From assembly GCA_964429995.1 (NCBI GenBank), contig CAYSDY010000005.1, positions 1-20,829 of the forward strand: a DNA stretch of 20,829 nucleotides, in the 5' to 3' direction. Below the pieces are notes generated by a model, which ran no database searches, had not been told where the DNA came from, and was given only the letters and a program-made list of their open reading frames with translations. Of the stretch, positions 85 through 20,413 are shown piece by piece. The position numbers and the translations under genes are program-made. Origin of the DNA: an uncultured Methanosarcinales archaeon. GTDB taxonomy: Archaea; Nanobdellota; Nanobdellia; Woesearchaeales; UBA583. How positions within the stretch are numbered: the stretch's first letter is position 1; every line of letters starts with the position of its first letter.

Positions 85-477
85 ATGTTGAAAAAAAAAA
101 GCATTAGCGAGCTTACAGGAGTAATGCTATTATTATCCTTATGCATTGTTGCAATAATTTTATATCAGGGATGGATAGTTGATTTTAGTAGTGGAATTTT
201 TTCACAGACACAAACCCATACAAACAACAATGCTTATATTCTTGAAAAGATAGAAACAGTTCTAAATAACAAGATTTACTTATCAACCAATAGAGGTCAG
301 TTAAACATAAAACAGATAAAAATAGGTGGAATAGATTGCAATATAAGCTTAAGTTTAAATGATACTGGAAGCATAGACTTTACCGATTGTATCGCTGAAA
401 TGGAATCTGGCAACAAAGAGATAGTTGTAATAACAGATAATAGAGTTATAAGCAAAACAGTATTTATACAAGGATAA
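85..477 (+). CDS. Archaeal type IV pilin-like protein (class III signal peptide)
   Basis: ATG start. The N-terminus MLKKKSISELTGVMLLLSLCIVAIILY is a short basic stretch followed by a hydrophobic helix. LNIKQIKIGGIDC resembles LALNYIKIGDRMC of the pilin-like ORF at 19565. The ORF ends at TAA 475-477, but the same frame stays open to 1623. Confidence 0.6.
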   Translation: MLKKKSISELTGVMLLLSLCIVAIILYQGWIVDFSSGIFSQTQTHTNNNAYILEKIETVLNNKIYLSTNRGQLNIKQIKIGGIDCNISLSLNDTGSIDFTDCIAEMESGNKEIVVITDNRVISKTVFIQG

Positions 478-666: not shown

Positions 667-1623
667 ATGAAATGTGAAAACAAGGCATCAACAGTTATAG
701 AAAACATAAGCATAGAAGTAACAAGAAGTTTTATAGATTGTGCTTATTCAGATTATCTTTTAGGTTGTGAGGCTTTTTATATTGTAACACCACATAATAC
801 GTTAATAGACACATTACACGGAATTGAGTTGCAGACCAATTTTTCTTCAACAACTATGAATCATACGAATGGTAAAGCTCATTGTGAGGCTTTAGAACAG
901 GCAGGTCATTCAGACTGGAGACTACCAACATCAACAGAATTACTTATGTCTATTGTAAACATCGCTCCAAACGGTGCTGGAATAACAAATTTATTTAAAA
1001 GTGAACTATTTACAAGTATAGCAACCGGACAATATGTATGGAGTGATAGTTTTTACAGAACCTATACTACAAGACCATTAACACATCAGCCATCAAGACT
1101 TCTTCAAATACTTTCAGAAACAACATTATTATATTATGTAATGTGCGTAAGAGATTATGATACAGATAATGATTTTTTAAAAACACAAAAATATGTTTAT
1201 AACTCAGGTTTAGGGCAAAAAAGAAATGTATCCGATTTTATTTTAAATGGATGTGGATCTGGAACAATACTTGATAATCTTACAAAACGTTGCTGGCAAC
1301 AAAGTCTTTCAGGCGTTGAGATGGAGTGGTTGACCGCTAAAAATTATTGTGAAAATTTAGAATTAGGTAATCATAGTGATTGGGAATTGCCAGATTTAAA
1401 AGAATTAGCCACACTCTTAGGCTATTCTTCAGAGACAATACAAACAATAGTTACATCCTATGGTTTTTCAAATATTCCTAATGGCTATTTGTATTCAAAT
1501 AAGGAATATTATGGAGGCACAAATAATGTTTATTACGCATGTTTTAGAAATGCAAGACCTTACTATTTTGCCAAAACAGAAACCACATGGCGTCATGCTT
1601 TTTGTGTAAGAAGAGATTTTTAA
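667..1623 (+). CDS. Secreted Cys-rich protein with two tandem DUF1566 (Lcl C-terminal-type) domains; coding probably extends upstream to 478 or 85
   Basis: Two copies of the family signature: AHCEALEQAGHSDWRLPTSTELLMSIV ... YVMCVRD, and MEWLTAKNYCENLELGNHSDWELPDLKELATLL ... HAFCVRR. Ten Cys residues. Confidence 0.75.
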   Translation: MKCENKASTVIENISIEVTRSFIDCAYSDYLLGCEAFYIVTPHNTLIDTLHGIELQTNFSSTTMNHTNGKAHCEALEQAGHSDWRLPTSTELLMSIVNIAPNGAGITNLFKSELFTSIATGQYVWSDSFYRTYTTRPLTHQPSRLLQILSETTLLYYVMCVRDYDTDNDFLKTQKYVYNSGLGQKRNVSDFILNGCGSGTILDNLTKRCWQQSLSGVEMEWLTAKNYCENLELGNHSDWELPDLKELATLLGYSSETIQTIVTSYGFSNIPNGYLYSNKEYYGGTNNVYYACFRNARPYYFAKTETTWRHAFCVRRDF

Positions 1624-2095: not shown

Positions 2096-3586
2096 ATGGT
2101 CATTTCGGATGAAATAAAAAAAGAAAAAATATCAAAGTTAAACAAGATTGCAGAATTAGGATACGAAACATATCCATATAGTTTTGATAAAGATTCAAGG
2201 ATAAAAGATATCAGGGAAAAATACGAAAATGTATTAAAAGAACACGAACAGACACAAGATTATGTCAAGATTGCTGGAAGAATAATGCTTAAGCGTGAGA
2301 TGGGAAAAGTCATGTTTATGGATATCTGTGATGAAGATTCAAAAATACAGGTTTTTTTTCGTTGCGATGATTTAAAAGAGAAATATGAGCTTGTTAAGTT
2401 GATAGATTTAGGTGATATAATAGGAGTTTATGGTCATGTTTTTAAAACAAAACTAGGGGAACTTTCAATATATGTAAAGGATTTTAACATATTAACAAAA
2501 ACATTTGTAGAACTTGGAGATAAGTTTCATGGAATAAAAGATGTAGAATTAAGATACAGAAACAGAAGCATTGATATGGTAATGAATCCAGAATCAAGAT
2601 CAGTGCTTAAAAAACGTTTTTTAATAATGCAAAAAATAAGGGAATTTATGATAAATGAAGGTTTTTTAGAAGTTGAAACACCAATTGCAGAAATACATTA
2701 TGGAGGAGCAGCAGCAAAACCATTTATTACACATCACAATGCATTAGATTTAGATCTATATCTTCGTGTTGCAACAGAAGAAAATCTTAAAAGAATCGTA
2801 TGTGGAGGAATAGAGGCTGTTTTTGAAATGGGTAAGGTTTTTAGAAATGAAGATATTGACAGAACTCATAATCCAGAATTTACATCAATGGAAGCCTATA
2901 AAGCTTATGTAGATTATGAATACATGATGAGTATGTGCGAGCGTCTTTTTGAGTTTGTTGCATTAGAAATAAACGGTACCACAAAAGTTACTTTTAAAGG
3001 TTGTGAAATAGATTTAAAGGCTCCATGGAAAAGAGTTAGTGTAAAATCCGCAATAAAAGAAGGTAAAGGGATTGATGTTGATAAATTGAGTGATGAAGAA
3101 TTATTTGAAATGGTAAAAAAAATAGGTAAAGATTTGTATCATAAAACAAGAGGAGAAGCAATATTAATTTTATTTGAAGAATATGGTGAACCTACAGGAA
3201 TACAGCCAACACACTTTATTGATTATCCACAAGAATCAACAGTCTTTTGCAAGAAAAAACGTGGTAGTCCTGATCTTATAGAAAGGTTTGAAAGTTTTAT
3301 ATGTGGAATGGAAGTTGCAAATTCATATTCAGAACTAAACGATGCAATACTGCAAAGATCTCTTTTAAAAGAGCAGGAAGAACATAAAGAGCAAGGTAAT
3401 GAAGAAACATGGGGAGAGGTAAATGAAGACTTCTTAGAAGCTCTTGAATTAGGAATGCCTCCTACTGGTGGAATAGGAGTTGGCATTGATAGACTTGTAA
3501 TGGTTATGTTAGGTCAGGATTCAATAAGAGATATAATATTTTTTCCAACAATGAAACCGAAAGAAAAAACAGTTAAAACAGAATAA
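2096..3586 (+). CDS. lysS: Lysyl-tRNA synthetase, class II
   Basis: 496 aa. The N-terminal OB-fold region is followed by a class II core. Motif 2-like FRNEDIDRTHNPEFTSMEAY; motif 3-like GMPPTGGIGVGIDRLVMVMLG. Confidence 0.93.
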   Translation: MVISDEIKKEKISKLNKIAELGYETYPYSFDKDSRIKDIREKYENVLKEHEQTQDYVKIAGRIMLKREMGKVMFMDICDEDSKIQVFFRCDDLKEKYELVKLIDLGDIIGVYGHVFKTKLGELSIYVKDFNILTKTFVELGDKFHGIKDVELRYRNRSIDMVMNPESRSVLKKRFLIMQKIREFMINEGFLEVETPIAEIHYGGAAAKPFITHHNALDLDLYLRVATEENLKRIVCGGIEAVFEMGKVFRNEDIDRTHNPEFTSMEAYKAYVDYEYMMSMCERLFEFVALEINGTTKVTFKGCEIDLKAPWKRVSVKSAIKEGKGIDVDKLSDEELFEMVKKIGKDLYHKTRGEAILILFEEYGEPTGIQPTHFIDYPQESTVFCKKKRGSPDLIERFESFICGMEVANSYSELNDAILQRSLLKEQEEHKEQGNEETWGEVNEDFLEALELGMPPTGGIGVGIDRLVMVMLGQDSIRDIIFFPTMKPKEKTVKTE

Positions 3587-4208: not shown

Positions 4209-4295
4209 AACTATGTTAGTCCTTACAATATGTATGTTTTACAACGCCATATCCTAAAAAAGCTTACGAAAAACAAGGTTTTTTAAAATTCTCTA
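4209..4295. repeat. Intergenic repeat element, copy A (pairs with 14776..14873)
   Basis: Manual alignment with copy B gives about 75 of 87 positions identical plus one 1-nt indel, in the same orientation. It contains AGCTTACGAAAAAC and an AAAAAC-NNN-GTTTTT hairpin. The last 3 nt (CTA) are the TAG stop of the minus-strand gene 4293..5444. A weaker AGCTTAC-AAAAC copy lies ~83 nt upstream (4178-4189). Confidence 0.8.
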
Positions 4296-5444
4296 CAATT
4301 CAACATTTACACTTTGTTCTTTAAGGTCTAACTTTTTAATTATTTTTTTTAGTTTATCACTTTCTTTAATTTTCTCTTTTAAAAAATCAGAACCTTTTTC
4401 TTTTAATGTTAAATTAATGTTTTTTATAATATCCTCAACCAGAGCATAGTTAGAATATATCAAATTTCCTTTATTTGTTTCAAATTCAATTTCATCTTCT
4501 ATGCTTTTTAGTTGTTCCATCTGTTTTAAAAGTCTTACATTAAGGCTTTTCATTTTATTTTCATAATCAGTCTGTTTTTTATCAATAGCTTTAATATGTT
4601 GTGAGTAATACGCCTTTATCAGTTCATTAAATGTTTCAAATTCAATAAGTTTTTTATCAGAAAATGATTTAAAAAGGTAAGGAATAAAATCATTAATTAA
4701 TTTATCATCATTATCATCAATTACCCCAAATGGTTTTATTTGAATTTTGGTCAATTCTATTGCACTACATATAAGTTTTTTAGCAATATCTTGATTAATA
4801 TTATTAGTATAAATTCCTTTTTCTATTCCTGATCTTATACATACTTCTTCAGCATACTTACCACCAAATCCGAATTCAGTTGCAATAAATTTTACAATTT
4901 CAGTTCTAGTTTCACAAGTTTTTTTCATAAAATAGTCATAATCCATGTTAAAGATAGAAAAATCTTTTTTAGGAGGCAATTCATATTTATCAGATACCAT
5001 TATTGCCCTATCCTTATATTTTCTTTTAATGAGCGAATTTTTTATTATATAGTTATCATCACAAAGTATGACATTTCCTTTTGCAAACATCTCAAACATT
5101 AGATGATAACAGCAAATATCATCATTTTCCTTTTTTTCTATTTTAAAGTCTATTATTCTTTCTGATTCAACCTGTTTAATATCTGTTATATAAGAATTAT
5201 TAAGATACTTTCTTAAATACAATACAAAATTTTCAGGAAAACTTGAATCACATCCATCCTTATTATCATCAATAAAACAACATGTACCTATCTTAAATAC
5301 GAAAAACCTGTTTCCCTTATTCTTAACATATATCTTAATGTAAAAATTATCATCAGATTTATAAAAATTATCAATTCTCTGATTCTTTAACATTTCAAAT
5401 TCTTTTATCAGAAAAAACAAATCCATTGATGTTATCTGTTTCAT
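4293..5444 (-). CDS. NFACT-family (RqcH/FbpA/Rqc2-like) protein with the N-terminal half only: NFACT-N + HhH + coiled coil, no NFACT-R/DUF814
   Basis: The N-terminus MKQITSMDLFFLIKEFEMLKNQRIDNFYKSDDNFYIKIYVK is typical NFACT-N. FGFGGKYAEEVCIRSGIEKG is the HhH segment. A coiled-coil-like stretch KQTDYENKMKSLNVRLLKQMEQLKSIEDE follows. The ORF stops at 383 aa. Confidence 0.75.
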   Translation of the reverse strand: MKQITSMDLFFLIKEFEMLKNQRIDNFYKSDDNFYIKIYVKNKGNRFFVFKIGTCCFIDDNKDGCDSSFPENFVLYLRKYLNNSYITDIKQVESERIIDFKIEKKENDDICCYHLMFEMFAKGNVILCDDNYIIKNSLIKRKYKDRAIMVSDKYELPPKKDFSIFNMDYDYFMKKTCETRTEIVKFIATEFGFGGKYAEEVCIRSGIEKGIYTNNINQDIAKKLICSAIELTKIQIKPFGVIDDNDDKLINDFIPYLFKSFSDKKLIEFETFNELIKAYYSQHIKAIDKKQTDYENKMKSLNVRLLKQMEQLKSIEDEIEFETNKGNLIYSNYALVEDIIKNINLTLKEKGSDFLKEKIKESDKLKKIIKKLDLKEQSVNVEL

Positions 5445-8626: not shown

Positions 8627-8747
8627 ACAAGCATTAAATTTTTTTATACATATAGTTTGAAAAACTTATGATTTTATGATGCAAAAGTTTAAACAGGTAA
8701 ATCTTATTAAAGATAGATTTAAAATAAAAAGTTTATATTAAAGAATT

Positions 8748-9479
8748 ATGAGTAATATTTTAGTAATTCCGGCAAGACTTGAATCTGTAAGGTTTAAGAA
8801 TAAATTAATAGAAAAAGTTAATGGAAAAACAATAATAGAAATTGTTTATGAAAGAGTTAAAGATTCTTTATGTATTGATGATGTAATAATAGCAACAGAT
8901 TCAGAAATCATAAAAGATATAATGCAATCAGTTGGTGCTAATGTTGTAATGACTCCTAAAGATTGCAAAAATGGCACAGAACGAATAGGTTATGCCCTAA
9001 AAAGTATTGGATCAAAACATGATATAGTAGTAAACATACAGGCAGATGAACCAATGGTTGATTTAGAAATCATAGATCTTTTAGTAAAAAGTTTTGATGA
9101 TAATACAGATATGGTAACACTAAAAAGAGAAATAACAAAAGACATAGATAACCCTAATTTTGTTAAAGTTGTAACTGATAAAAATAATAATGCTATGTAT
9201 TTTTCAAGATCAAAAATTCCATACAACAGAGATAATGACACAAATGTAAAATATTATAAGCATTTAGGATTCTATGCTTACAGACAAAGTTTCTTACAAA
9301 AATATTTGCAAATGCAAAGTACAGTTCTTGAGCTTTCTGAAAAACTAGAACAGTTAAGAATATTGGAAAATGGTTATAAGATTAAAGTGATAGAAACCGA
9401 CAGATTAACAATAGATATAAATACAAAAGAAGATCTAGAACATTATAAATCATATATAGGTGAAAATAAAAATGTTTAG
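8748..9479 (+). CDS. kdsB: 3-deoxy-manno-octulosonate cytidylyltransferase (CMP-Kdo synthetase, KdsB/KpsU family)
   Basis: ILVIPARLESVRFKNKLIEKVNGKTII, VNIQADEPMV and LEQLRILENGYKIKV parallel the E. coli KdsB segments IIPARYASTRLPGKPL, VNVQGDEPMI and LEQLRVLWYGEKIHV (recalled from memory). Confidence 0.85.
   Translation: MSNILVIPARLESVRFKNKLIEKVNGKTIIEIVYERVKDSLCIDDVIIATDSEIIKDIMQSVGANVVMTPKDCKNGTERIGYALKSIGSKHDIVVNIQADEPMVDLEIIDLLVKSFDDNTDMVTLKREITKDIDNPNFVKVVTDKNNNAMYFSRSKIPYNRDNDTNVKYYKHLGFYAYRQSFLQKYLQMQSTVLELSEKLEQLRILENGYKIKVIETDRLTIDINTKEDLEHYKSYIGENKNV
9458..9463 (+). promoter_or_regulatory. Shine-Dalgarno-like site for the internal operon gene kdsD
   Basis: AGGTGA lies 8 nt upstream of ATG 9472, inside the 3' end of kdsB. 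Confidence 0.4.
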
Positions 9480-10440
9480 TCCAAAAGATATCAAAGAATA
9501 CATACAAGAAACAAGAGAGTCATTAAAATATCTTGAAGATAACATAGATGAAAATTACATAAAAGCATACAATTTATTAAAAGAAGTAAAAGGTAACATA
9601 ATTTTTACAGGTCTTGGCAAATCAGGTCATATAGCACAAAAAGCATCTGCAAGTTATACAAGTACAGGAAATCCATCCTTATTTCTAAATCCAGTAGATG
9701 CTCTTCATGGTGATCTTGGTGTAATAAAAAAAGATGATTTGGTTATACTTATATCAAAAAGTGGGAATACGCAAGAGGTAGTTGAGTTAGCAAGACATAT
9801 TCATAAAATGAACATTAAGGCAATAGCAATAACAAATACCAAAGATTGTTTGTTAAATAAATATGCTGATGTTGGAATTAATATGTATGTAAAAAAAGAA
9901 TTATGCATCCATAACCTAGCACCAACAACAAGCACAACTCATACACTCATAATACTTGATATATTTATGGTCCTTTTAATGAGAAAAAAAGAATTTAAAA
10001 AGGAAAATTTTGCATTGTATCATCCTAAAGGGACTCTGGGCAAACAATTACTCTTAACAGCAGGTGAGTTAATAACAGATCCAGTATATTATGCAAAGAA
10101 GACTGCAGATTTTACAGAAATACTTGAAATTGCATCAAAAAAATCAAAAGGAATAATTCCAATAGTTGAAAACGATAAAATTATAGGAATAATATCAGAT
10201 GGTGATATAAGAAGAATAATAAGAAAATATAAAAAAGACGTTTTTGATGTAAAAATTGAGCAGGTAATGACAAGTCTTAACATAAAAACAGTTGTTAAAT
10301 CAGAACTTGCAATTTGTGCATTAAAAATAATGACAGAAAATCATATAACAGCACTTCCTGTTCTTGATGAAGAAGGAAAACTTGCCGGTATAATCAACAT
10401 ACATGACATACTCAATGCAGGATTAAGGATTGATATGTAA
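9472..10440 (+). CDS. kdsD: Arabinose-5-phosphate isomerase (KdsD/KpsF family; SIS domain + 2 CBS domains)
   Basis: IIFTGLGKSGHIAQKASASYTSTGNPSLFLNPVDALHGDLGV...ISKSGNTQEV parallels E. coli KdsD. The C-terminal CBS pair ends in ITALPVLDEEGKLAGIINIHDIL. The track start 9460 is GTG. I prefer ATG 9472 because of its SD-like site; it overlaps kdsB by 8 nt (ATGTTTAG). Confidence 0.88.
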   Translation: MFSPKDIKEYIQETRESLKYLEDNIDENYIKAYNLLKEVKGNIIFTGLGKSGHIAQKASASYTSTGNPSLFLNPVDALHGDLGVIKKDDLVILISKSGNTQEVVELARHIHKMNIKAIAITNTKDCLLNKYADVGINMYVKKELCIHNLAPTTSTTHTLIILDIFMVLLMRKKEFKKENFALYHPKGTLGKQLLLTAGELITDPVYYAKKTADFTEILEIASKKSKGIIPIVENDKIIGIISDGDIRRIIRKYKKDVFDVKIEQVMTSLNIKTVVKSELAICALKIMTENHITALPVLDEEGKLAGIINIHDILNAGLRIDM

Positions 10441-10457
10441 AATACATGTGCTAAGAT

Positions 10458-10465
10458 TTATAAAT
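10458..10465 (+). promoter_or_regulatory. TATA-box-like element for the KpsS-like gene
   Basis: TTTATAAA centred ~26 nt upstream of ATG 10487. Confidence 0.45.
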
Positions 10466-10486
10466 TTAGATTAAGCCATAACAAGT

Positions 10487-11776
10487 ATGAAGCATAAAAT
10501 AATACTTGTTAACTGTCCTTGTAATAAATTTGCAGATAAAATGCAAAACTTCTTTTTAGACAAAAAAAAGCACTTTGATTTTGAAACAATAAATTTAAAT
10601 GATATACAAGAAAAAAAAAACAATCTAGACGATTTCCTTATATCAAGAATGATATCTTTTGAGCTGACAAAAAGTGCAGTATACAGATATAATTTTGGTC
10701 TCTTATTTAATTATAAAAGAATATTCTCAATAGCTAACAGATCTTCAGAGTTCTGTACAAAAAAAATAGAGCAGGCGGATCTTATACTAATTTTTGAAGC
10801 AAAACATCTCTTATCCCAGATATTTATAGAGTTATGCAGGTTACACAAAAAAGAGTGCTTTATAATTTCAAAAACAATACAAAACGAAGTAAATCTTTGT
10901 AGAATAATAACAAAAGAAGGTTTAGAGATTGAAGTAAGTTTTGAAAACATTTTAAATAACAACCAAGATATAAATGCAATTTTAAAAGACACACAGGATG
11001 TAAAATACAATGATATAAAAAAAACAGACAATTTCATAGAGAATAAGAAAGGTATGATAACACGACTAAAAGAACAAATGAAGTATTCTGGAATATTCTA
11101 TGGTTTGTTAAACTCTTTTAAATCATCTTTAATGTTTAAGATTAGCAATTACAGAAAAAACAAGTACGGAAAGTTCATTGAAATAGATAAAAACAAAAAA
11201 TATGTAACACTATTTTTACAGACAACATACGATAGTCACAATCTTTTAAGCAAGATAACTTATGATCAAATAATACAAAAACTAATAGATGAAACAGACC
11301 ATCAGATAATAATAAAAGAACATCCAGAGCAACATTACGAATACAAGATAGATGAAAAATTAAAAAAACACAAAAGAGTCACATGGATATCCAAATATGA
11401 TAGAATAGATTTTTTAGGTCTACTTTTAAATTCAGAATTTAATGTTGTAATAAATTCTACATGCGGAATAGAATCGGTATATCTTGATAAACCCACATTT
11501 GTTTTTGACAATGCTTTCTACTACAATTATACATATGCATCATACGATTACAATAATATAACATTTAAAGAATATATTAAAAGAAAAGAAGATTTAGAAA
11601 AAGAATATTCATTAAAAAGATTAAATTACAGAAAAGGTTATTATAAGTATTTTATATCACAAAATGGAACACAGGATTACATATTTAATTTTTTTTCAAA
11701 CTGCAATAATTTATATTCATTAGTTTTAAAATCAAAAAATAAAACGCTTTTTGACATAGCATCCAAAACTTTTTAA
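10487..11776 (+). CDS. Capsule_synth-family protein (KpsS/KpsC-like), putative beta-Kdo transferase
   Basis: YVTLFLQTTYDSHNLL (Q245-x3-D249), IIIKEHPEQ (H279-P280) and NVVINSTCGIESVYLDKPTFVFDNAFY match my recollection of the conserved core of KpsS/KpsC (LQvxxDsqi, KxHP, NSTvGleAl..gkPv..lG.a.Y). The gene sits directly after kdsB-kdsD. Confidence 0.65.
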   Translation: MKHKIILVNCPCNKFADKMQNFFLDKKKHFDFETINLNDIQEKKNNLDDFLISRMISFELTKSAVYRYNFGLLFNYKRIFSIANRSSEFCTKKIEQADLILIFEAKHLLSQIFIELCRLHKKECFIISKTIQNEVNLCRIITKEGLEIEVSFENILNNNQDINAILKDTQDVKYNDIKKTDNFIENKKGMITRLKEQMKYSGIFYGLLNSFKSSLMFKISNYRKNKYGKFIEIDKNKKYVTLFLQTTYDSHNLLSKITYDQIIQKLIDETDHQIIIKEHPEQHYEYKIDEKLKKHKRVTWISKYDRIDFLGLLLNSEFNVVINSTCGIESVYLDKPTFVFDNAFYYNYTYASYDYNNITFKEYIKRKEDLEKEYSLKRLNYRKGYYKYFISQNGTQDYIFNFFSNCNNLYSLVLKSKNKTLFDIASKTF

Positions 11777-11801
11777 AAATATAAAGTTTTTAAAAAAGTA
11801 T

Positions 11802-16512: not shown

Positions 16513-16520
16513 TTTATAAA
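16513..16520 (+). promoter_or_regulatory. TATA-box-like element for aglB
   Basis: TTTATAAA centred ~27 nt upstream of ATG 16543. Confidence 0.45.
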
Positions 16521-19564: not shown

Positions 19565-20413
19565 ATGTTTAAAGATTTATTGCATAAAAAAGGAATAAGT
19601 TCTGTAGTTCTTGTAAGTATATTGATTGCAGGATCAGTAATGTCATTTTTTGTTCTTTCACAATGGTATACAGACATTCAGTCTAAATTAGAGTTACAGG
19701 CAATGTCTAATAATATACATACGCACCTTGAAATTGAGAAAATTTCAGAAACAAGTATTTACATTTTGAGTAGGTTTAAATTAAATTTAGCACTAAATTA
19801 CATAAAAATAGGTGATAGGATGTGTGTTAATAATTTAATAATAAGTCCAGGAGTTAACAAGATTAACATAAAAGGATGTATTGTAGGTTTACAAAACATG
19901 ACTCCATACGATGTTCAAATAGGAACGAATTTAGGGTTATATTCAGCATATAAAATTTTACGTGATATTCCAGAAAAAGAACTAATAATAAGATACACAA
20001 AATCAGAGTGCAATTCAGAAGATGGATATACAAGGCTTTACGGCGTTGATTCTATAGATAACTCACATGTTGAAATAGATGGTTCAGGAATCTACAATGT
20101 TTGTGCAAAACATGTAAATTATACAATTGGTAATCAGTGTACCAATTCTTTTGCTAATTTATTTTTAATAGCATCACAAAATAATTCACATGTATATACA
20201 GAGACATCACAGGTTCATTCTGCAAGTCCTGATTACTATGATTGGTACAATATATGTTTAAACAGTTTTGAATCAACAGTACATTATCTTTTAAACGAAA
20301 CAGCTGATGAAAGGTATACATGTATTGCAAGCATAAATAAAAATGATATTTACGGTGCATCGATTGCAAGTTGTGATTATTACAAAGACAATTTGTTTGT
20401 ATTTGTTGGATAA
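19565..20413 (+). CDS. Archaeal type IV pilin N-terminal domain protein with a Cys-rich C-terminal extension
   Basis: HKKGISSVVLVSILIAGSVMSFFVL resembles the archaeal pilin N-terminal signature (K/R-G-x-S-P-V-I-hydrophobic). The mature part has 8 Cys. It looks paralogous to the ORF at 85. Confidence 0.7.
   Translation: MFKDLLHKKGISSVVLVSILIAGSVMSFFVLSQWYTDIQSKLELQAMSNNIHTHLEIEKISETSIYILSRFKLNLALNYIKIGDRMCVNNLIISPGVNKINIKGCIVGLQNMTPYDVQIGTNLGLYSAYKILRDIPEKELIIRYTKSECNSEDGYTRLYGVDSIDNSHVEIDGSGIYNVCAKHVNYTIGNQCTNSFANLFLIASQNNSHVYTETSQVHSASPDYYDWYNICLNSFESTVHYLLNETADERYTCIASINKNDIYGASIASCDYYKDNLFVFVG

Follow-up and report, generated by a model that had tools for sequence, protein, structure and literature searches.

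Kdo (3-deoxy-manno-octulosonate) counts as a hallmark of the envelopes of diderm bacteria, where it belongs to the inner core of lipopolysaccharide (LPS) and to capsule linkers, and it is also found in plant rhamnogalacturonan II. In the kpsFEDUCS capsule locus of E. coli, KpsF-like and KpsU-like genes stand beside a PF05159 transferase. Here we describe a similar trio in archaeal DNA. It lies in a stretch of 20,829 nucleotides (hereafter the window), the first 20.8 kb of the ENA metagenome contig ERZ27252302:k141_346526 (63,360 bp), and consists of kdsB, kdsD/kpsF and a gene for a divergent PF05159 (Capsule_synth) protein. The E. coli locus has KpsE/D/M/T, KpsS and a dual-module KpsC, whereas the window has genes for a GT4 glycosyltransferase, a methyltransferase fusion, a Wzx-like flippase and the oligosaccharyltransferase AglB. 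The original prediction, made from the sequence, had taken the trio for a capsule 'region 1'-like module with a transferase of the KpsS/KpsC type. We favor, with moderate confidence, a different reading, in which a glycan carried on a lipid receives Kdo before AglB attaches it to protein, the Kdo being supplied and added by a bacterial-type module set in an archaeal N-glycosylation cluster.

The beta-Kdo transferases WbbB (GT99), KpsC/KpsS (GT107) and KrkA (GT140) resemble the PF05159 protein of the window in their C-terminal Rossmann domain of the PF05159 type, in the QxxxD and HP motifs and in an adjacent supply of CMP-Kdo. The motifs of these three families have been defined experimentally: the Asp of QxxxD is the nucleophile and its Gln binds the Kdo carboxylate, the His of HP protonates the leaving CMP phosphate, and a Glu in the N-domain serves as the general base (PMC9587256, PMC10148158, PMC12887879). 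According to a description of the retaining Kdo transferases known in 2022, this Glu (Glu158 in WbbB, Glu66 in KpsC) is absolutely conserved among them. Kdo adducts of +220 Da have been seen on WbbB, KpsC and KrkA. The window protein differs from the solved beta-Kdo transferases in its low identity (~10-15%), its single module, a serine (Ser128) at the general-base position, an N-terminal acceptor domain that cannot be aligned, and its archaeal host. Shared with them is the approximate spacing from the Asp to the His, 30 residues here and 33-34 in WbbB and KpsC.

In the archaeon Halorubrum sp. PV6, the genes for making legionaminic acid lie in one cluster with those for N-glycosylation, and the AglB-dependent N-glycan of the S-layer ends in this sugar (PMC6137143). 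The likeness to the window lies in the clustering of archaeal genes for a CMP-activated ulosonic acid with those for N-glycosylation. The Halorubrum system, however, concerns a nine-carbon sugar made through LegB-I/LegF and was shown experimentally, whereas the present one concerns the eight-carbon Kdo, involves KdsB/KdsD and is a genomic prediction. In full-text literature searches, no paper was found that describes Kdo, KdsB or CMP-Kdo from archaea or DPANN, although most subscription journals lay outside these searches, so that this is not proof of absence; a 2024 review of archaeal N-glycosylation leaves Kdo unmentioned.

Kdo activation enzymes and the PF05159 protein

The kdsB product matched PF02348 with 190 bits and exceeded the NCBIfam cut-offs of TIGR00466 (204.9 against 155.2) and NF003952 (288.7 against 193), and the PseF model reached only 44 bits. 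Its matches in the PDB comprised 13 KdsB entries (E 4.5e-44 to 4e-32; 153 bits), as compared with E 2.5e-6 (30 bits) for a CMP-N-acetylneuraminate synthetase. Residues 2-240 aligned end to end with residues 2-254 of H. influenzae KdsB (1VH3), and the blocks of the solved KdsB proteins, IPARxxSxR...K, GTER, NIQxDEP and LEQLRxLxNG, were kept, with NIQADEP replacing NIQGDEP. These data indicate that the gene encodes a predicted full-length CMP-Kdo synthetase, as had been proposed; on scores it did not group with the nonulosonate synthetases. A nonulosonate cytidylyltransferase of the NeuA, PseF or LegF type was rejected for this gene on the model and PDB scores.

The kdsD product carries a SIS domain (PF01380, 79.5 bits) followed by two CBS domains (PF00571) and scored 250.3 against the TIGR00393 KpsF/GutQ model, above the cut-off of 203.7. 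It did not reach the E. coli equivalog cut-offs, either for KdsD (243 against 505) or for GutQ (218 against 481), suggesting that it is a member of the family and not a close orthologue. Its active-site blocks GLGKSGH, ALHGDLG, SKSGNTQE, LAPTTSTT and YHPKGTLG aligned with those of the solved isomerases 2XHZ (E. coli KdsD), 5UQI and 3ETN, the forms GxGKSGH, HGDLG, SxSGxTxE and HPxGxLG being conserved. The protein is thus a predicted arabinose-5-phosphate isomerase of the KpsF/GutQ/KdsD family, in agreement with the earlier assignment. In the public gene call the kdsD ATG precedes the kdsB stop codon (TAG, 9477-9479), so that the two genes overlap by 8 nt; an alternative kdsD start is a GTG at 9460. 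Since kdsD is also the one gene of the window preceded by a Shine-Dalgarno-like element, we consider that kdsB and kdsD are co-expressed for one pathway.

The third gene of the trio encodes a protein that exceeded the gathering score of PF05159 (28.9 bits against 20) over residues 227-363. A word-indexed search of 5.8 billion proteins retrieved only the protein itself, and an exhaustive search of 1.84 billion cluster representatives returned 16 weak relatives (E 1e-9 to 8e-4) over residues ~180-395. One of these, P0002 (2461 aa, matched in 12 short stretches), was set aside as a likely low-complexity artefact, leaving 15; all 10 relatives that were scanned proved to be PF05159 proteins. When the protein was compared with the profile of its relatives using hhalign, residues 95-368 aligned with a probability of 99.6% and an E-value of 8.9e-24. 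A phmmer search of the PDB with the protein alone gave nothing meaningful. The family profile, searched against 177,635 distinct PDB sequences, matched only KpsC (2.8e-13 to 1.2e-9) and WbbB (1.4e-12 to 6e-11), the next match being an epimerase at E 0.32.

The donor-side motifs were in place, as the original prediction had stated. The QxxxD motif is present as Q245-T-T-Y-D249 and is conserved among the 15 relatives, and the profile column of D249 aligns to Asp232 of WbbB. In the H279-P280 pair, the proline is invariant and the histidine is kept by all relatives but at most one (at least 90% of the sequences in the alignment of 16). NSTCGIES and FDNAFY were likewise found where they had been placed, with the NSTxGxE motif intact. 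Taken together, profile and motifs assign the protein to the superfamily of retaining beta-Kdo transferases. Because it is equally distant from GT99 and GT107, no CAZy family can be assigned.

An AglB-type glycan cluster and the proposed fate of Kdo

The genes that follow the trio differ from those of a capsule locus (Table 1). Within 8 kb of aglB lie the genes for the Wzx-like protein (PF01943), the GT4 enzyme, the PF05159 protein, KdsB and KdsD. The AglB protein itself matched PF02516 with 91.8 bits; its score of 51 bits against TIGR04154 was far below the cut-off, suggesting a divergent AglB, and the archaeo_STT3 model outscored that of PglB. This predicted gene content is that of an archaeal agl cluster and not of a kps locus. 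With GT4, the methyltransferase fusion, the Wzx-like flippase and AglB after the trio, the likely product is an oligosaccharide assembled on a lipid and used in the N-glycosylation of proteins. The original prediction had recognized the trio itself, and left this context, which points away from a lipid-anchored capsule, unused.

The loci of four relatives of the PF05159 protein were read. Among full-length relatives the closest is P0003 (31% identity over 150 aa). On its bacterial chromosome of 2.8 Mb (AP024110.1), the P0003 gene has wzx on one side and kdsA on the other; a kdsB-kdsC fusion comes next, kdsD and Wzy are close by, and the surroundings are those of an exosortase/Wza/Wzz polysaccharide locus. 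P0007 and P0010 adjoin Wzx and Wzy genes, and P0006 adjoins genes of the GT2/GtrA type. Three of the four loci read thus stand beside bacterial genes for a Wzx flippase and a Wzy polymerase, and they are not kps loci. This placement, together with the dedicated Kdo supply in one case, suggests that the subfamily works in flippase-dependent assembly of lipid-linked glycans; the Kdo-supply genes beside P0003 support Kdo as the donor sugar, and the Wzx/Wzy loci argue against the KpsS/KpsC role, in which a linker is built on lyso-phosphatidylglycerol for capsules exported by an ABC transporter. The AP024110.1 locus shares with the window the grouping of Wzx, Kdo genes and a PF05159 gene. It differs in belonging to a diderm bacterium and in having kdsA, kdsC, Wzy, Wza and Wzz, whereas the window has AglB instead and is without kdsA and kdsC. 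We noted that the AP024110.1 locus (L053, 8001-14688), of the exosortase exopolysaccharide type, looks like a dedicated Wzx/Wzy system for a Kdo-containing polysaccharide.

Table 1. Predicted features of the Kdo and glycan gene cluster, with window positions.
Feature	Position	Strand	Remarks
TATA-like box TTTAAAAT	8718..8725	+	begins 30 nt before the ATG of kdsB; predicted to drive a leaderless transcript of kdsB and kdsD
kdsB, predicted CMP-Kdo synthetase (3-deoxy-manno-octulosonate cytidylyltransferase), 243 aa	8748..9479	+	PF02348, TIGR00466, NF003952, structure alignment
GGTG, Shine-Dalgarno-like element	9459..9462	+	13 nt upstream of the kdsD ATG; sole such element before any gene of the window
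kdsD/kpsF, predicted arabinose-5-phosphate isomerase (SIS + 2 CBS), 322 aa	9472..10440	+	TIGR00393; alignment with 2XHZ
TATA-like box TTTATAAA	10457..10464	+	starts 30 nt upstream of the ATG of the PF05159 gene, within the 46-nt spacer
Divergent PF05159 (Capsule_synth) protein, candidate retaining beta-Kdo glycosyltransferase, 429 aa	10487..11776	+	QxxxD, HP; Ser128
GT4-family glycosyltransferase, 381 aa	11802..12947	+	own TATA-like box at -30 (11772-11779)
Fusion of an alpha/alpha-toroid (prenyltransferase/cyclase-like) and a class I S-adenosylmethionine methyltransferase, 573 aa	12940..14661	+	8-nt overlap with the GT4 gene
Wzx/MOP-family flippase-like membrane protein, 505 aa	14879..16396	-	11 hydrophobic segments, some fitting two helices (simple hydropathy scan)
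AglB/STT3 oligosaccharyltransferase, 986 aa	16543..19503	+	WWDFG at 648-652; N-terminal two-thirds with 11 hydrophobic segments
Protein of 282 aa whose basic N-terminus and single hydrophobic segment resemble a pilin-like class III signal peptide	19565..20413	+	sequence inspection only

On these grounds a pathway can be proposed. KdsD would convert ribulose-5-phosphate to arabinose-5-phosphate, a Kdo-8-phosphate synthase (KdsA) and a phosphatase (KdsC) encoded elsewhere would yield free Kdo, and KdsB would activate Kdo to CMP-beta-Kdo in the cytoplasm. The PF05159 protein then probably transfers Kdo, and would do so through the covalent Asp mechanism of retaining beta-Kdo transferases, in which His279 would assist the departure of CMP, Asp249 would be the nucleophile and Gln245 would hold the Kdo carboxylate; this donor-side chemistry follows from the conservation of the motifs. 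The acceptor would be a dolichol-linked oligosaccharide built with the neighboring GT4 enzyme and the methyltransferase, after which the Wzx-like protein would flip the glycan and AglB would transfer it to Asn residues of surface proteins. The acceptor, flipping and AglB steps are inferred from gene adjacency.

A more specific version of this proposal can be put forward only tentatively. According to it, a DPANN archaeon may decorate the N-linked glycans of its surface proteins (S-layer or pilin-like) with Kdo, the transferase may represent a new retaining beta-Kdo lineage whose general base has been relocated as in GT140, and a bacterial module may have been rewired to leaderless promoters and to dolichol and AglB. 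The 282-aa protein encoded directly downstream of aglB is a possible glycosylation substrate. It and a second small protein, encoded at 85-477 (+), each have a basic N-terminus ahead of a lone hydrophobic segment, reminiscent of the class III (type IV pilin-like) signal peptides of archaea. The toroid domain of the methyltransferase fusion gave weak matches to prenyltransferases, squalene-hopene cyclases and glycoside hydrolases, an unusual architecture in a glycan cluster, and the fusion is possibly a glycan-modifying enzyme.

Several observations count against the route through AglB or against the transferase that it requires. At the general-base position the PF05159 protein has Ser128, as judged by both MAFFT and hhalign, and the Glu is kept in most of its relatives, whose 'yFEnG' Glu aligns to Glu158 in the 'HIEIG' of WbbB, in a low-scoring segment. 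The N-terminal acceptor-side domain was barely alignable, and not outside residues 95-150, and the protein is a singleton without close homologues. As to the highly modified GT-B fold of the retaining beta-Kdo transferases, the AlphaFold2 models, one of the full-length protein and one of the core, were mediocre (pLDDT 63.7 and 65.9). The top eight Foldseek matches of the core model were all KpsC or WbbB, which speaks for a Kdo transferase, but at TM-scores of only 0.29-0.39, and with the full-length model UDP-GlcNAc 2-epimerases ranked first, without separation from the beta-Kdo transferases. As to the pathway, neither kdsA (PF00793) nor kdsC (PF08282) was found in the window or on the contig up to position 30.5 kb (the stretch read comprised the window and the next 10 kb of the same contig), so that the pathway is incomplete as seen; the original prediction had reported the same absence from the window. 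No initiating phosphoglycosyltransferase was found in the window. Furthermore, the link to AglB is one of adjacency, as the genes belong to separate predicted transcription units, which by promoters and overlaps are kdsB-kdsD, the PF05159 gene, the GT4 gene with the fusion gene, the Wzx-like gene on the minus strand, aglB, and the gene for the 282-aa protein.

Ser128, which the original prediction had overlooked in an otherwise accurate account of the donor-side motifs, leaves real doubt over the PF05159 protein as a conventional transferase. The protein might be a degenerate or repurposed member of its family, acting on another CMP-ulosonic acid, as a hydrolase or in a structural role, with CMP-Kdo used by the GT4 enzyme or by one encoded elsewhere. 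The inactivity of the E158A/Q variants of WbbB fits such a loss of function, as do the orphan character of the sequence and its unalignable N-terminal domain. However, Q245, D249, H279, P280 and NSTxGxE are all intact, and the gene follows kdsB-kdsD directly, has a host-type promoter of its own and contains an intact open reading frame that is identical in several assemblies. The position of the base is, moreover, movable, since in the GT140 enzyme KrkA it comes from a different structural element (PMC12887879), and Glu134 and Glu144 lie near Ser128 in the present protein. We therefore regard Ser128 as a caveat and not as a disproof of activity, hold a degenerate or repurposed protein to be unlikely, and prefer the view that the protein probably transfers Kdo.

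The capsule framing of the original prediction fared less well. It would have the PF05159 protein build a beta-Kdo linker on an archaeal ether lipid, anchoring a capsule-like polymer. PF05159 is the family of KpsS and KpsC, the best PDB match of the family profile is KpsC, and genes of the KpsF and KpsU types adjoin the PF05159 gene as in kps loci. Nevertheless, neither a KpsM/T ABC transporter nor KpsE/D, nor a pair of KpsS and dual-module KpsC, was among the Pfam matches of the open reading frames scanned in the window or in the Pfam listing for the next 10 kb. The 429-aa protein is a single module for which WbbB scores as well as KpsC, the relatives examined stand mostly in Wzx/Wzy loci, and the local context is one of Wzx and AglB. 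The acceptor of the kps system, lyso-phosphatidylglycerol, is also implausible in an archaeon. We thus consider a capsule linker unlikely here.

The absence of kdsA and kdsC from the 30 kb examined leads to a further explanation, namely that the pathway is truly incomplete, that the cell scavenges Kdo, either from the LPS-rich community of the digester or from a host (bacterial or archaeal), and that KdsD serves in pentose-phosphate interconversion. KdsB takes free Kdo and not Kdo-8-phosphate, and DPANN genomes are reduced and host-dependent, both of which would suit scavenging. Yet the overlap of kdsB and kdsD and the sole Shine-Dalgarno-like element indicate one co-expressed pathway, the ~30 kb represent a small part of an expected genome of ~1 Mb, and bacterial kdsA genes are often unlinked from kdsB. 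As the KdsD step would have no known purpose without KdsA, kdsA is expected elsewhere in the genome. The use of scavenged free Kdo is a possible alternative to this, and an incomplete pathway as a whole appears to us quite unlikely.

Archaeal host and probable bacterial ancestry of the module

One indication of the host came from the promoters. The motif TTTAWAWW starts at -29/-30 in 8 of the 17 gene starts, including those of kdsB, the PF05159 gene, the GT4 gene, aglB and the gene after aglB; in addition to the boxes listed in Table 1, one lies at 16513-16520. Among the 883 ATG triplets of the window only nine have the motif at this distance, and eight of these are gene starts (binomial P ~5e-10). 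No gene other than kdsD, an internal operon gene, is preceded by a Shine-Dalgarno-like sequence. Such a geometry is the pattern of archaeal TATA-box promoters and leaderless mRNAs and implies, as far as sequence can tell, that transcripts in this organism are mostly leaderless. The coordinates, the plus strand, the 8-nt overlap, the 46-nt spacer and the TATA-like box before the third gene had all been given exactly by the original prediction.

Three further observations, independent of the promoters, point in the same direction. The RqcH/NFACT protein scored 63 bits against human NEMF, as compared with 24-28 bits against bacterial RqcH/FbpA, and its best NCBIfam model was RqcH_arch (217 bits). 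An S-layer-like protein of 831 aa, whose gene lies on this contig 10 kb further downstream, had four homologues in the database as a whole; a single one of these is named, and it comes from Candidatus Woesearchaeota (52% identity). Finally, AglB contains the WWDFG motif. On these four lines of evidence the contig is assigned to an archaeon, probably of the DPANN type (Woesearchaeota-like), in accordance with the host that had been proposed. No tRNA or Rfam RNA of taxonomic use was found in the window or in the downstream stretch (L007).

A bacterial contig, for example from an AT-rich member of the candidate phyla radiation (Patescibacteria), or a chimera appears very improbable: the bacterial-type class II lysyl-tRNA synthetase, the VirB4/TrbC-like genes downstream, the bacterial PglB as best PDB match of STT3 and the exclusively bacterial close relatives of KdsB would suit it, but the TATA boxes and leaderless starts occur window-wide, kdsB and the PF05159 gene included, RqcH is of the archaeal/eukaryotic type, archaeo_STT3 scores above PglB, the S-layer-like protein has its Woesearchaeota homologue, and synteny is identical among the ENA, JGI and Logan assemblies, with uniform guanine-plus-cytosine (GC) content. 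The PglB match, of 35 bits, is ambiguous and was given no weight with respect to archaeal origin. Bacterial-type lysyl-tRNA synthetases and VirB4/TrbC-like genes are compatible with DPANN genomes and are neutral as evidence.

Several of these genes deserve a description of their own. The RqcH gene, at 4293-5444 (-), encodes only 383 aa. These match positions 1-376 of an archaeal model that has 645 positions, so that the C-terminal half is missing or located elsewhere. The lysyl-tRNA synthetase, at 2096-3586 (+), matched TIGR00499 with 532 bits. Downstream of the window, on the minus strand at L007 15337-19476 (contig ~25-29 kb), lie genes for a VirB4/TraG-like ATPase (1013 aa) and a TrbC-like protein resembling pilins of type IV secretion systems, together with small genes of unknown function; the S-layer-like gene comes after the VirB4/TrbC-like genes, downstream of the glycan cluster. 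In the 318-aa product of the gene at 667-1623 (+), the Lcl C-terminal domain (PF07603, 90 bits), which takes its name from the Legionella collagen-like adhesin, occurs twice.

The source of the module itself appears to be bacterial. The best 120 homologues of KdsB showed 45-51% identity, and all of the named ones were bacterial (Fusobacterium, Cetobacterium, the Omnitrophota 'Aceula', Metabacillus and Halonatronum). A GTDB scan with KdsB returned 36 loci, all of them bacterial, including Planctomycetia, Omnitrophota, Acidobacteriota and Chlamydiales, and no archaeal relative. Four contexts of KdsB relatives were read: two were clearly bacterial, both with DNA polymerase III alpha and GatB and the second also with LpxD and OmpH, and the remaining two were polysaccharide loci without archaeal features. 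The GC content ranges from 22 to 32% across the window, with no step at kdsB, kdsD or the PF05159 gene, and that of the trio (0.24-0.29) equals that of the neighboring genes. The host-like GC and the host-type promoters suggest an old, well-integrated acquisition from a bacterial donor. We infer that the module is of bacterial ancestry and was transferred long ago, and both the bacterial relatives and the host-like composition accord with what had been proposed. A recent, unameliorated transfer was rejected because of the uniform GC and the host-type promoters.

The locus was recovered more than once. Identical proteins in the same gene order were found in further ENA assemblies, among them ERZ27252305 (contig k141_355034), in the JGI samples 3300033172 and 3300033169 and in several Logan assemblies. 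The JGI samples apparently come from an anaerobic digester in Wageningen, the Netherlands, according to a table in which the row of sample numbers is ambiguous (PMC10159854). The uniform GC, the host-type promoters and the identical synteny across independent assemblies led us to reject a chimeric assembly. Upstream of window position 1, all of the locus-bearing assemblies (ENA, JGI and Logan) stop within a few hundred bases, an indication of repeated or strain-variable DNA at this point.

Meaning of Kdo genes in an archaeal glycan cluster

The enzymes described here belong to known families; what is new is their setting, namely the archaeal host, the context of AglB and Wzx, the leaderless promoters and a lineage of transferases that lacks the canonical base. 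If the proposed route is true, it would place an octulosonic acid in a glycoconjugate of archaea for the first time, and an eight-carbon ulosonic acid would join the archaeal glycan repertoire through the transplantation of a module for a bacterial envelope sugar into a pathway that depends on AglB. A highly divergent beta-Kdo transferase without the canonical general base would then be available for mechanistic comparison with GT99, GT107 and GT140. Caution is also called for where metagenomic counts of kdsB or kdsD are used as a proxy for LPS-producing bacteria. For the organism itself, the proposed route, if true, would suggest a surface mimicry or adhesion chemistry common to an episymbiotic archaeon and the bacteria that surround it.

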